Shown piece by piece: positions 54,854 through 58,906 of a stretch of 64,000 nt of DNA. Source of the stretch: a virus (Duplodnaviria; Caudoviricetes); the IMG/VR virus record IMGVR_UViG_2799112954_000004, positions 1-64,000 of that record, one strand, 5' to 3'. Position numbers and translations under genes: made by a program. The notes beneath the pieces were generated by a model. That model had not been told where the DNA came from and searched no databases. It saw nothing but the letters and a program-made list of their open reading frames with translations. The stretch's first letter is position 1; each line of letters begins with the position of its first letter.

Positions 54854-55135
54854 CTATACCCAGTCGATATGGTTCTCAGTTATGAAATAGTGACTCTTGC
54901 ACGGCAGGTTGTCACTTAAGATTGAGGGGCGTATTGTCACCTTACCGTCCTTGTCTATGATATTCCACAGGTACTTATTGAAAGCGATGTGGATCTGATT
55001 GCCACAACCGCACGGGCAGAGGTATGTGGCGCAACTGAACTCTCTGCTGATGTACAGCTTGCCGTGTTCCAACTTCTCCTTGTAAGGTAACTCGCCTTTC
55101 ACGAATACCGGCTCAAACTTTTGTAATTTATTCAT
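54854..55135 (-). CDS. DUF6527-like small Cys/His protein
   Basis: LCPCGCG...W...DGKVTIRPSI...CKSHYFI....IDW; true start MNKLQ at 55135. Confidence 0.75.
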   Translation of the reverse strand: MNKLQKFEPVFVKGELPYKEKLEHGKLYISREFSCATYLCPCGCGNQIHIAFNKYLWNIIDKDGKVTIRPSILSDNLPCKSHYFITENHIDWV

Positions 55136-55427
55136 TGTTATTGTTTTTATGCTTTCTTCTTGTTTCGGCTCTATGCTGTGCGTCATACTTATTGTGACAA
55201 CGCTGACAGAGAGCACGGAGGTTTTCTGGTCGGCAGTCTTCGGGCGTATGATTGAGGTGGGCTATTGTAAGCACAACCTTTATCATCTTTCCCTGGTCGT
55301 TCTTTACTATCGAATGGTTCAAACGCCCGCAGAACTCGCAACGGTTATTAGCACGCTTTAGGATGGCCTCACGTATCTGCTTCCAGTTCTTTGGATAGCG
55401 TGCCTTGTTTTCCGGTCTTATTGGCAT
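55128..55427 (-). CDS. HNH-like Zn-binding protein
   Basis: RYPKNW, CEFCG, VVLTIAHLNH.PEDC..ENLRALCQRCH. Confidence 0.8.
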   Translation of the reverse strand: MPIRPENKARYPKNWKQIREAILKRANNRCEFCGRLNHSIVKNDQGKMIKVVLTIAHLNHTPEDCRPENLRALCQRCHNKYDAQHRAETRRKHKNNNNE

Positions 55428-55558
55428 GGCTTATCTCCTTCCTCATCTTGAGTTTCGTCGAGATTGTCACGCGCATTGACGAGCATACAGACCGTCATTC
55501 CACCTAAGAAGACACCAACAAATACACCGAAAGCGAACGGAATGATAAAATCTACCAT
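55418..55558 (-). CDS. Small single-TM protein (46 aa)
   Basis: Not in ORF track: MVDFIIPFAFGVFVGVFLGGMTVCMLVNARD...; overlaps both neighbours. Confidence 0.6.
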   Translation of the reverse strand: MVDFIIPFAFGVFVGVFLGGMTVCMLVNARDNLDETQDEEGDKPCQ

Positions 55559-56451
55559 ACCTCACCTCCTTCCGGGAACTTAGGAATACGCTTCCAATAC
55601 TCAACCTTGTAGTTCGGTTCCATCTTGTTGCGTCTGTGCTCAAAGCCATTCTCGTCAACGAAGTCAGATGGCTTAGCTTGGTAGCCATTAGACGGATCAT
55701 TGGCGAGCGACACCATTTTCTCAAGCCTCTCGTCAGTTAATCTTCGGCTTATGTAAACGCCTTTATTCTTTCCGCCATTTCCATCATCATAAACGAAGCC
55801 AACAATTACGTTCTCTCCTTTCTTAGGCAGCTCCTTATCAACGCTCTTCCATTTGAGGACTTCGATACCGCCCTCGCATTGGCCGAGCAGATAAAACAAC
55901 CTTTCTCTCTCAGTGTTAAAGCTGGCCTTTGGCTGTCCGTTATCGCCTTGGCCCTGCATTTCTTGCTCGCCCTTTGGCCTTATTGGAATCGGCATCCAGT
56001 AATCAACGCCATACACGTTCCCATCAAACTGACATGGGTAGGTTCGAAATCCATTCTCGTCTGTGTCGTAGTCTCCGACTTTGTTTGCAGCAATCGTGTC
56101 AACGTTGTAGCTCATCCCGTAGTGGCTAACCAACACGAGTTGGTCTTCCTTTGGCAGGCGCTCCTTAACGCTTATCCAACGGCTGTTGGAGTGGGCTTTA
56201 AGGTAATCTTCCTCGTGAGCATTATACACTTTCTCGTCAATCTTCCATAAGTCTGTTATCTGACCCTGCAGATACTCAACACTGATGGAGTCGAGTTTGT
56301 TCTTTCTCGCATAGTCCAGCAGGTCGAGCAATTCCATTCTGGTTGCCATAACCATCGCCTGAGAGACAATCGTAGCAGACTCGGTGCCGGGCAGGAAAAT
56401 CTTTTGTTCTTCGCTCATAATGAAATCCCCGTATTGCCGATAGGTCAGCAT
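55552..56451 (-). CDS. Protein with two DUF551-like domains
   Basis: WISVKERLP...YWMPIP and WKSVDKELP...YWKRIP. Confidence 0.7.
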   Translation of the reverse strand: MLTYRQYGDFIMSEEQKIFLPGTESATIVSQAMVMATRMELLDLLDYARKNKLDSISVEYLQGQITDLWKIDEKVYNAHEEDYLKAHSNSRWISVKERLPKEDQLVLVSHYGMSYNVDTIAANKVGDYDTDENGFRTYPCQFDGNVYGVDYWMPIPIRPKGEQEMQGQGDNGQPKASFNTERERLFYLLGQCEGGIEVLKWKSVDKELPKKGENVIVGFVYDDGNGGKNKGVYISRRLTDERLEKMVSLANDPSNGYQAKPSDFVDENGFEHRRNKMEPNYKVEYWKRIPKFPEGGEVW

Positions 56452-56488: not shown

Positions 56489-56611
56489 TTAACCTTCGCA
56501 GATGATAGCAAGCTGACCGCAAGCGGCACCATTCTCAATCTCTGCCTTTGTTGCAATGGCTACAGCATAGTCATAGCCCATCTTCTCGAGCATTTTCTTA
56601 ATTGCTTCCAT
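56489..56611 (-). CDS. 40-aa peptide carrying the RlmN/Cfr C-terminal AACGQL motif
   Basis: Not in ORF track: MEAIKKMLEKMGYDYAVAIATKAEIENGAACGQLAIICEG, 59 nt after radical SAM stop. Confidence 0.75.
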   Translation of the reverse strand: MEAIKKMLEKMGYDYAVAIATKAEIENGAACGQLAIICEG

Positions 56612-56670
56612 ACTAATTAATTTTTAATTGAACAATGTTTATAAAATGCAGAATAGTCTGCGTCTCTTTA

Positions 56671-57456
56671 CTATACTAAATTAACTCCTTCGACAACACC
56701 TTTACCGCATCCATTTTTTTCAGACACTTCGTTAGGGTTAATGGGAGACAGCTTCACGAAGAAATACTCCGGATCGAAATACTTTCTCAACTTATCGCCA
56801 TCAAAATCGCTCTCGTCGATGAGCGTTAGGTTGATGGTGGTCTTTAGATTGCTCTTTGTGCGTATCTGCCCAAGTTCCTCAATACTCATCTTCTTTTTCA
56901 GTGGGATGAGCCAGTCTCTGTGCTTCTCGTCAAAGCTATGCAAGCTGATCTGCAGCGTCACATTACCTTCTACAAAAGAAAAGTCGCTACCCTTAATTCC
57001 TATGGTTGAAACGTAATGATGGGTGTTAGGGTATTTCTCGGAAATACGCTTAATCGCTTCTTTGACGGCCTCGATATTCAAGAACGGCTCTCCCATTCTT
57101 GTATAATTGATTTTGAACTCCTTAGCATCTAAGGGATTGCAGCCCGCATTATCGATAGCGAACTTAACTTGCTCTACAATCTCGTCGGCAGAAAGATTGC
57201 GCCAGTGCTGTTTCATGTTTCCAGTTGCGCAGAACTTGCAGTGTACCGGACATCCACTCATGGTTGAGACTCCTATCATCCATCGTTCTGAACGGTCTCC
57301 AAGGTTCTCATTATCCAATTTGTTCTGCTTTCTACCAATAGCGTCTTTCGTGTAGTACGGCAAGAAGGTGTCGGTGGTCTCAATCAGCTTGCCGTCATCA
57401 AGCTCCAGCGCGTATACAACGCCATTCTTAAACTTTTTGAATCTTTTTACTTTCAT
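56671..57456 (-). CDS. RlmN/Cfr-like radical SAM protein, C-terminally truncated
   Basis: GCPVHCKFCATG (CxxxCxxC), RNLSADEIVEQV, MGEPFLN, VSTIG, LQISLHS. Confidence 0.85.
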   Translation of the reverse strand: MKVKRFKKFKNGVVYALELDDGKLIETTDTFLPYYTKDAIGRKQNKLDNENLGDRSERWMIGVSTMSGCPVHCKFCATGNMKQHWRNLSADEIVEQVKFAIDNAGCNPLDAKEFKINYTRMGEPFLNIEAVKEAIKRISEKYPNTHHYVSTIGIKGSDFSFVEGNVTLQISLHSFDEKHRDWLIPLKKKMSIEELGQIRTKSNLKTTINLTLIDESDFDGDKLRKYFDPEYFFVKLSPINPNEVSEKNGCGKGVVEGVNLV

Positions 57457-57468
57457 AATCTTTATCTT

Positions 57469-58296
57469 TTAAAGTTGATAGTCAATGCCACATGCCATAG
57501 CAAACTGGTTGATATAGTCTCTCACCTGACCTATGACCAATTTGGCGTTAGGGTGAGGTCTGCCAGTCGTTCCGTAATAACGGAGGTTGATGATATGTTT
57601 CCAACGTCTTACACTGTAAGTGTAAACGACTTTTGTGGCTGTGTCGAGAGGGAGGACACCACGTGCGTCCTCGGGCTTCACTCCAGCTGCAAGTAACTGA
57701 AGATAGATTCCCTCCGAACCTTGCATTGCAGCAAGATATAGCTCACGCTTCTCCGTCTCTATATCCTCGTCCCAATACCAAGGCTTGCATATTTCCAGTC
57801 CGTATTTAGAGGCGCAATAGCGAGTGGAGCGTTCTGCAATGTTGTTTGGGCTCACTCTGTTCAGCTCTCTGCTTGTACTGATCTGCGTAGTGATGCAGAA
57901 AGTCATTCGGTATATATCGAACAGGCTTGGGTCACTTTTACAGAAATTAAGTATCTCGGCCGGAGAGAATTTCTCTCGAACTTGCTTCTCAAAAGCAAAC
58001 TGGCCATTGGTGGAGAAATAATAATCACTTTCATCTCCCCAAACAATCGAATCTACAAACTCGCTGCGCATACAATCCGGCACTCTCTCACAAGTATAGC
58101 TGCCATAGATGGAACTATGCCTTAGCATGCTTACATGGCCACGCTTGATTAAACCGTCATATAGCTTATCGTCTTCTTCTCCGGAGTGAAGTTTGCCTTC
58201 TCCTCCATAACAGACTCTTGCACATCTTGCAATGTGCTGTGATGGAGCAAGGTCTATCTCGCTCCAAAACTCAACTTTCGGATCAATCAGTTCCAT
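57469..58296 (-). CDS. thyX: FAD-dependent thymidylate synthase (divergent)
   Basis: ARCARVCY, GHVSMLRH, SRELNR...ERSTRYC, DARGVLP, HPNAK; RHRxxS motif altered to RVSPNN; start MELID at 58296. Confidence 0.75.
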   Translation of the reverse strand: MELIDPKVEFWSEIDLAPSQHIARCARVCYGGEGKLHSGEEDDKLYDGLIKRGHVSMLRHSSIYGSYTCERVPDCMRSEFVDSIVWGDESDYYFSTNGQFAFEKQVREKFSPAEILNFCKSDPSLFDIYRMTFCITTQISTSRELNRVSPNNIAERSTRYCASKYGLEICKPWYWDEDIETEKRELYLAAMQGSEGIYLQLLAAGVKPEDARGVLPLDTATKVVYTYSVRRWKHIINLRYYGTTGRPHPNAKLVIGQVRDYINQFAMACGIDYQL

Positions 58297-58906
58297 TTCT
58301 AACGATTTTATTATATGCCCATTGGACTGCCTTGATGCTCCACTCGCAATCTGCAAGGGCGTTATGTACTGTACCTTTGGTATCTATAAGGGAGTATGGG
58401 TCTTCTACGTTTGGCTCAAATACACGGGCGGTTTCCAAGAAATAGGTCCTCGCGTCTCGGACGTTGCGGAAGTGCCAGGGGATGGACTTCTCGTCACCAA
58501 ACACAACTCGGTAGGCATTTCTCAGCACTGCTATATCGAAGTCGGTTCCTTGCGTCCATATCATCAGCTCATCCGCCTTGCTATCCTTTTGCCATTGTTC
58601 CAGCCACTCGTTGAACTCTGACAGCACGTATGAGATTGGCTCTCCCCACTCAGTTTTAAAGTTCTCTTTAGCCTCCTGCTTCGACCACCACTCAATCGTT
58701 CCTTGATCGAACGACATACCGTACATTGCGCAAGTGGTAGCGTTGACATTCTTGACGAAATGAGACTCCGTCTTCTTATCGTCGGTAAACTGCTTAGTCT
58801 TGGAACCATCAAGCGTGAACGTCTTTGCAGCAATCTGGATAATGGCTGCTGTGGAGCGCAAGGACAGCGTTTCCACGTCGACCAACACGTCTAAATACTT
58901 TTTCAT
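58283..58906 (-). CDS. DEDD 3'-5' exonuclease (Rv2179c/DUF5051-like)
   Basis: VDVETLS...AAIIQIAA, TIEWW, WTQGTDFD, RDART, HNALADC. Confidence 0.85.
   Translation of the reverse strand: MKKYLDVLVDVETLSLRSTAAIIQIAAKTFTLDGSKTKQFTDDKKTESHFVKNVNATTCAMYGMSFDQGTIEWWSKQEAKENFKTEWGEPISYVLSEFNEWLEQWQKDSKADELMIWTQGTDFDIAVLRNAYRVVFGDEKSIPWHFRNVRDARTYFLETARVFEPNVEDPYSLIDTKGTVHNALADCEWSIKAVQWAYNKIVRNGTD

Follow-up and report, generated by a model that had tools for sequence, protein, structure and literature searches.

The textbook enzymes for methylation through a protein-bound methyl-cysteine radical are RlmN, the C2-methyl synthase of 23S rRNA A2503 and tRNA A37 (TIGR00048; PDB 3RF9/3RFA, 4PL1, 5HR6/5HR7, and 6FZ6), and Cfr, the 23S rRNA A2503 C8-methyltransferase (TIGR04432; PDB 9P0P) and a clinically important resistance enzyme. 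Both are class A radical SAM enzymes made as single chains, and both of their catalytic cysteines are held to be essential. In RlmN, Cys355 (C338 in Cfr), located in a flexible C-terminal loop, carries the methyl group and forms the S-CH2 radical, whereas Cys118 (C105 in Cfr), located seven residues before the first cluster cysteine, is indispensable for resolving the covalent enzyme-RNA adduct, probably as the base that deprotonates C2 or C8 (PMC9692996). Loss of Cys118 stops turnover, and the C118A variant accumulates the protein-RNA cross-link (PMC9692996). The locus described here, on a crAss-like phage of the cattle gut, encodes a relative of RlmN as two proteins, namely a 261-residue body that lacks the counterpart of Cys118 and a separate 40-residue peptide that carries the counterpart of Cys355. 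A literature search, which left out most subscription journals, found no description of a split or Cys118-less RlmN-like enzyme, or of such genes in crAss-like phages. PHROGs contained no family for either protein beyond a weak hit to an unnamed one, and the automatic JGI label "adenine C2-methylase RlmN" on some cores and peptides was the only annotation.

The two-gene locus and its predicted structure

The window, i.e., the whole 64,000-nt stretch of DNA that was analyzed, is part of a 98,265-bp contig of phage size within a 2.85-Mb binned assembly. The nearest named phage is the crAss-like Kehishuvirus tikkala (OQ198717, 72% identical core), and the DNA runs that hold the stretch are mostly from cattle gut. 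The original prediction of two separate open reading frames, a core and a cysteine-bearing tail peptide, held for this locus (Table 1). The peptide is in a different frame from the core, has its own ATG, and ends in ...GAACGQLAIICEG.

Table 1. Positions of the features in the window.
Feature	Position	Strand	Size	Remarks
Core subunit (ORF1)	56671-57456	minus	261 aa	RlmN/Cfr-like radical SAM barrel (predicted fold) without the RlmN N-terminal domain and without the C-terminal tail
Codon for Gly62	57271-57273	minus		Position of the resolving Cys118 of RlmN
Codons for C69-x3-C73-x2-C76	57229-57252	minus		[4Fe-4S]/SAM cluster motif
Codons for RMGEP	57085-57099	minus		Residues 120-124; the Arg switches together with loss of Cys118
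Intergenic spacer	56612-56670	minus	59 nt	A/T-rich, no Shine-Dalgarno sequence
Hairpin GCAGA-CTAT-TCTGC	56648-56661	minus	5 bp	Followed by ATTTTAT
Peptide subunit (ORF2)	56489-56611	minus	40 aa	Helix, strand, then the Cys loop; counterpart of the RlmN C-terminal tail
Codon for peptide Cys31	56519-56521	minus		Counterpart of RlmN Cys355 (methyl carrier)
TTA codon, first	56679-56677			In frame with the second, 59 nt apart
TTA codon, second	56620-56618			
RNA-library contig X18	56645-56870			Lies on the core

The core is a Radical_SAM protein (PF04055, 1.8e-9), and Pfam found only Radical_SAM and Fer4_12 in it. Its best NCBIfam hit was RlmN (TIGR00048), at 77.6 bits against a cut-off of 290, followed by the Cfr models at 47-52 bits. 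In contrast, a full-length RlmN of 350 aa encoded elsewhere in the same assembly scored 327.6 bits. An AlphaFold2 model of the core built on 16 homologues was confident (pLDDT 90.5), and its best Foldseek matches in the PDB were RlmN (6FZ6, 4PL1, 3RF9/3RFA, and 5HR6/5HR7; E 1e-11 to 1e-9) and then Cfr (9P0P), well ahead of other radical SAM enzymes. The core shares the radical SAM partial barrel, the CX3CX2C and MGEP motifs, and the beta-hairpin ahead of the cluster motif with RlmN, but is only 22-26% identical to it, has Arg before MGEP and other pocket changes, and lacks the N-terminal helical RNA-binding domain (RlmN residues 1-78), since the TIGR00048 match started at model position 67-102 and the structural alignment at RlmN residue 79. 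Cfr was a weaker match than RlmN. The charge and pI of the core were uninformative.

Gly62 aligned with Cys118 of RlmN in phmmer alignments (Cys in 6FZ6, Ala in the C118A structure 4PL1). It was Gly in all six aligned relatives and, like the cluster motif, invariant in two alignments of relatives, and no other cysteine of the core was conserved. The only conserved cysteine outside the cluster triad is Cys31 of the peptide, which was invariant in all peptides aligned and falls in an AACGQL motif, whereas the second cysteine of the window peptide (C38) was variable.

The similarity of the peptide to the RlmN tail was more than chance. A profile of 11 diverse peptides, aligned using hhalign against an alignment of RlmN-like single-chain proteins, landed on residues 309-343 of the 350-aa RlmN of the assembly, covering the helix, the strand, and the CG(Q/L)L loop (P 1.9e-4), although the match to canonical RlmN-like tails was modest (probability 47%) and a HMMER search of PDB sequences with the 40-residue profile alone did not reach RlmN. 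The link was much stronger through natural fused relatives. P0192, a single-chain protein of 347 aa, continues past the point where the phage core stops, with a linker of about 14 residues and then a segment that matched the peptide (probability 94%, E 1.6e-7), and P0135 (315 aa) carries the module within its N-terminal 40 residues instead (probability 96.5%, E 7.9e-10). P0192-type proteins occur in genomes of Peregrinibacteria and Altimarinota, and a second C-terminal fusion (L090) likewise belongs to candidate-phyla-radiation (CPR) bacteria; no relatives of P0192 were found in viral contigs. In a single-chain fold of a relative (L092) in which core and peptide are in frame and separated by one stop codon, read as Gln, the mean pLDDT was 84.7, with about 88 for the peptide helix, 72 for the strand, and 60 for the Cys loop. 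The model superposed on E. coli RlmN at Z 26 and rmsd 2.5 Å over about 260 residues (VIA-align), model residues 1-305/311 aligning with RlmN 79-360/365, and thus the peptide covers the RlmN tail that holds Cys355. The structural alignment with Cfr gave Z 18.4. However, this is a prediction on a chain joined through the native stop codon that leans on the knowledge AlphaFold has of RlmN, rather than evidence of binding.

Conservation of the split and loss of the resolving cysteine

The split is old and under selection. A total of 2086 core homologues were detected; those in the best-120 list were almost all 260-261 aa, and the five longer ones that were read were N-terminal over-calls, every one inspected ending at the same ...EG(V/I)NL(V/I) (...EGVNLV in the window). 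Relatives with one continuous frame had been named beforehand as the finding that would refute the split, but relatives across crAss-like, Moorella, Vibrio, Pectobacterium, and Yersinia phages contained the same two genes. The core was followed by a small ORF with the AACGQ motif in K. tikkala (43 aa, 2 nt downstream), in Moorella phage MTATph1 (40 aa, 15 nt downstream), in Vibrio phage D479 (a 93-aa ORF with two tandem copies of the module), and in Pectobacterium and Yersinia Ounavirinae, where the peptide lies two genes downstream. Among 80 close IMG/VR loci, 79 encoded the peptide, the exception being a contig that ends 936 nt after the core, and among 18 distant loci, 16 did. The gap was -32, -4, 2, 4, 8-20, 37, 59, 286, 317, 789, 1171, or 1221 nt, most often 19-20 nt, in relative frames 0, 1, and 2, and the peptide always began with ATG. 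Whole genes were located between the two in some phages, including a second radical SAM gene plus a small class I methyltransferase in 13 of 80 loci, a GIY-YIG endonuclease in one locus (L095), and an 84-aa ORF in another (L094). At least 2549 stand-alone peptides of 18-114 aa are on record, and over 34 distinct peptide genes pN was 0.083 against pS 0.70, giving a dN/dS of 0.044.

A quick maximum-likelihood tree of 74 relatives, rooted on the RlmN of the assembly as a single long outgroup branch, placed forms with both cysteines at the base and all forms without Cys118 in one clade (SH-aLRT 96). This clade contained 24 single-chain enzymes with Ile or Val at that position and a fused SNCGQ tail (such as P0196), and a 29-member group with Gly (Thr, Ala, Asn, or Tyr in a few members), mostly tail-less, that included the window, P0135, and P0192. 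On this tree, the cysteine was lost before the tail was detached. Its loss went with other changes near the active site, including Arg before MGEP (R120; Arg in 91-96% of forms without Cys118, Ser or Gly in forms with it), K205, K235, N240, and Tyr-to-Phe at position 210. This points to a clade-wide change in how the reaction ends, or in what it acts on, rather than to something peculiar to the split forms. The short single-chain members such as P0192, L090, and P0196 share the loss of Cys118 and the switched residues with the phage core, and P0192 has the same tail sequence pattern as the peptide, but they keep the Cys module fused, are found in cellular genomes, and are uncharacterized as well, so they give no function.

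Interpretation and alternative explanations

The pair is most likely a two-subunit version of a class A (RlmN/Cfr-type) radical SAM enzyme that would use the methyl-cysteine radical chemistry of RlmN but finish the reaction differently, a reading to which a probability of roughly 0.6 is given. The analysis itself establishes the genetic and structural part, which is almost certain: two genes, two polypeptides, a peptide that is the detached Cys tail of the family, and no Cys118. What follows is inferred by analogy with RlmN and Cfr from sequence and predicted structure alone, including binding of the two chains, catalysis, and the substrate. In this view, one SAM methylates Cys31, a second SAM is cleaved to the 5'-deoxyadenosyl radical, which turns the S-methyl group into an S-CH2 radical, and that radical adds to an sp2 carbon of the substrate. 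The adduct would then be resolved by another base or an outside reductant, in the manner of 1-Cys peroxiredoxins (Prdx6 type), which are unrelated in fold and chemistry but belong to a family that normally uses two cysteines, kept only one, and complete the cycle with an outside thiol. A working cycle without Cys118 is an assumption, given the effect of its loss in RlmN and Cfr, and its main support is that fused relatives without Cys118 would otherwise be single-use enzymes. The substrate may differ from A2503/A37 of RlmN, and an adenine in RNA is only the default guess.

The interpretation in the original prediction was partly supported. A genuine, conserved split of an RlmN/Cfr-like enzyme, a separately translated methyl-carrier tail, the absence of the resolving cysteine, and the low rank given to translational bypassing were all borne out. 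The proposal that the A/T-rich leader and the hairpin make the spacer organized was not supported, nor were phage tRNA mimics as a target, since no tRNA gene was found in the window and one tRNA-Ser(GGA) on the whole contig. With regard to the suggestion that the peptide may be a dissociable methyl shuttle or itself the substrate, the relatives with C-terminal (P0192) and N-terminal (P0135) fusions argue that the module normally works as a bound part of the enzyme.

An alternative that is possible but unlikely is a true RlmN or Cfr equivalent in two pieces, acting on C2 or C8 of 23S rRNA A2503 or on tRNA A37 in the infected cell. RlmN and Cfr are the closest families by sequence and by fold, and the JGI label agrees with this. 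However, the core scores far below the family cut-off, lacks the N-terminal domain and Cys118, and differs systematically in pocket residues, and the assembly that holds the phage contig, whether or not it represents the host, already has a full RlmN.

A slightly less likely reading is that of a natural cross-linker or consumable peptide, in which the reaction stops at the stage trapped in RlmN C118A. The S-CH2 bridge would then be the end product, and the pair would be a peptide-to-nucleic-acid (or peptide-to-metabolite) ligase that tags a host or phage RNA or DNA base with a 40-residue peptide, or that spends one peptide per methyl group delivered. The Gly at the Cys118 position throughout the clade, the cross-link of C118A RlmN, and the economy of placing the cysteine on a small, separately made peptide that would spare the enzyme are consistent with this, and the two-module tandem peptides (P0281, P0282, and L003; such peptides occur in Vibrio phages) fit a consumable at least as well as a subunit. 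On the other hand, relatives without Cys118 that carry the module fused to the enzyme (P0192, P0135, and the 24-member SNCGQ group) would be single-use enzymes, overlapping or closely spaced genes (gaps of -4 to 20 nt) suggest roughly equal amounts of the two products rather than an excess of peptide, and no adduct has ever been observed.

It is also doubtful that the peptide is the substrate, as a RiPP-like precursor whose modified form is the product. A small peptide gene does lie next to a radical SAM gene, some relatives add a second radical SAM gene and a methyltransferase around the peptide, and the tandem-module peptides resemble multi-core precursors. However, the peptide is homologous to the catalytic tail of an enzyme, is fused to the enzyme in relatives, and is highly conserved rather than variable; Pfam found no SPASM or recognition domain in the core, and no protease or exporter travels with the pair. 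A recently broken gene, a frameshift, or bypassing of the T4 gene 60 type is excluded, despite the small hairpin and the in-frame TTA codons (a coincidence in A/T-rich DNA), by the varying gaps and frames, the inserted genes, the constant ATG and core end, and the GTA between the TTA and the stop codon.

The system is a natural experiment on the RlmN/Cfr mechanism, repeated in thousands of phage genomes, in which the methyl-carrier loop is a free peptide and the resolving cysteine is gone. If the pair turns over, it shows another way to release the product, and if it does not, it is a natural cross-linking system. A two-piece enzyme would also be a convenient tool, because the Cys-bearing peptide can be synthesized, labeled, or mutated separately from the iron-sulfur core. 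The gene is one of the commonest unannotated enzyme genes of gut crAss-like phages, and K. tikkala on Bacteroides cellulosilyticus is a cultured system that carries the pair.

Spacer and neighboring genes

The hairpin in the spacer exists but was not distinguishable from chance. The spacer folded no better than shuffled sequences (z -0.41), terminator-like sites were not enriched (5 found against 2.9 +/- 1.9), and relatives mostly have a 19-20 nt A/T-rich spacer without it. Only short contigs from cattle-gut RNA libraries lie on the core and none covers the peptide; X18 happens to stop just after the hairpin, but such contigs cannot show transcript ends or expression. The spacer was also considered as a deletion scar of the cassette with a second radical SAM gene and a methyltransferase seen in locus L010, but 30 of 59 matches to the two ends of the cassette, reached by 12 of 500 shuffles, and nothing against locus L070, are too weak to claim this.

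The pair travels as a unit. The only recurrent companions were a MoaA/viperin-like radical SAM protein and the small methyltransferase, located between the two genes in two crAss lineages and after the peptide in L094. This hints at nucleotide-type chemistry, but both are absent from the locus in the window, and the second radical SAM gene was not found in the five named phage records in a search without a positive control. The flanking genes in the window, which encode ThyX, an Rv2179c-like exonuclease, and a DUF551 protein, accompanied the pair only in this phage, in 1 of 80 loci, and the thymidylate synthase next to the pair in the Moorella phage therefore looks coincidental.

Genes accompanying the core and peptide genes

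A second radical SAM protein (254-262 aa), whose N-terminal part was most like MoaA and viperin (about 50 bits), and a 148-150-aa class I methyltransferase (phrog_5399) were located between core and peptide in 13 of 80 close loci (including L010 and L070), and after the peptide in locus L094. The radical SAM protein contained CX10CX2C in L010 and CX3CX2C in L094. These proteins may be tailoring partners; they are absent from the window. A GIY-YIG-type homing endonuclease ORF was inserted between the core and the peptide gene in one distant relative (L095). In the window, the same-strand neighbors included ThyX, an exonuclease, a DUF551 protein, and an ORF judged HNH-like by eye. The ThyX ORF as listed overlapped the exonuclease ORF by 74 nt, so its real start is probably an internal ATG.

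Coordinates of the accompanying genes and related forms
Sequence	Position	Strand	Feature
L010	3289-4504		second radical SAM protein and methyltransferase
L070	3280-4468		second radical SAM protein and methyltransferase
L094	2724-3488 onward		second radical SAM protein and methyltransferase
L095	2292-3107		GIY-YIG-type homing endonuclease ORF (271 aa)
L003	2300-2581		peptide gene with two tandem modules
L090	5995-6990		C-terminally fused form (Ca. Altimarinota chromosome)
L114	5938-8349		three-gene row
L115	6173-8556		three-gene row
Window	57469-58356	-	ThyX (PF02511)
Window	58283-58906	-	Rv2179c-like 3'-5' exonuclease (PF16473)
Window	55552-56451	-	DUF551 protein (299 aa)
Window	55128-55427	-	HNH-like ORF
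Contig C95	12748-12836		tRNA-Ser(GGA), outside the window

Tandem, permuted and fused forms

In Vibrio-type phages (locus L003; proteins P0281 and P0282), the peptide gene encodes two complete tandem copies of the helix-strand-Cys-loop module. A relative, P0135 (315 aa), has the Cys module fused to the N-terminus of the core, a permuted single-chain form that was seen on at least three contigs. C-terminally fused forms without Cys118 occur in CPR bacteria, including L090 (Ca. Altimarinota) and L089 (Ca. Peregrinibacteria). In L090 the gene lies near an ATP-grasp protein, a B12-binding radical SAM protein, an AAA_28 protein, and a TPR-sensor protein. Protein P0244 shows Trp where Gly is expected, which suggests a genetic-code-25 organism translated with the wrong table.

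In two related genomes of the same phylum as the window's assembly (L114 and L115), a single-chain RlmN-like protein without Cys118 ("SNCGQ" tail) sits in a tight three-gene row, with a thioredoxin-reductase-like flavoprotein upstream and an isochorismatase-family hydrolase downstream. A third genome (L110) lacked the flavoprotein in the 1.5 kb available. In addition, a sister group (P0207, P0193, P0240, P0257, and others; 258-284 aa) with the motif KIGVSLxSGC has Gly at the Cys118 position and ends just after the tail's strand (GFxYAxR), with no Cys loop at all.

Genomic setting

The window's contig (C95 of assembly G000; 98,265 bp) is phage-sized, with a GC content of 47% against 50% for the bin, and sits in a 2.85-Mb, 123-contig bacterial bin; the phage is therefore probably binned with a bacterial genome rather than integrated. 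The contig has a single tRNA gene. Some identical peptides (P0314, P0336) were recorded on very long contigs (up to 2.27 Mb), and one is named as a Parabacteroides merdae protein, thus indicating that the pair also turns up in bacterial assemblies, as a prophage, an episome, or a mis-binned contig.
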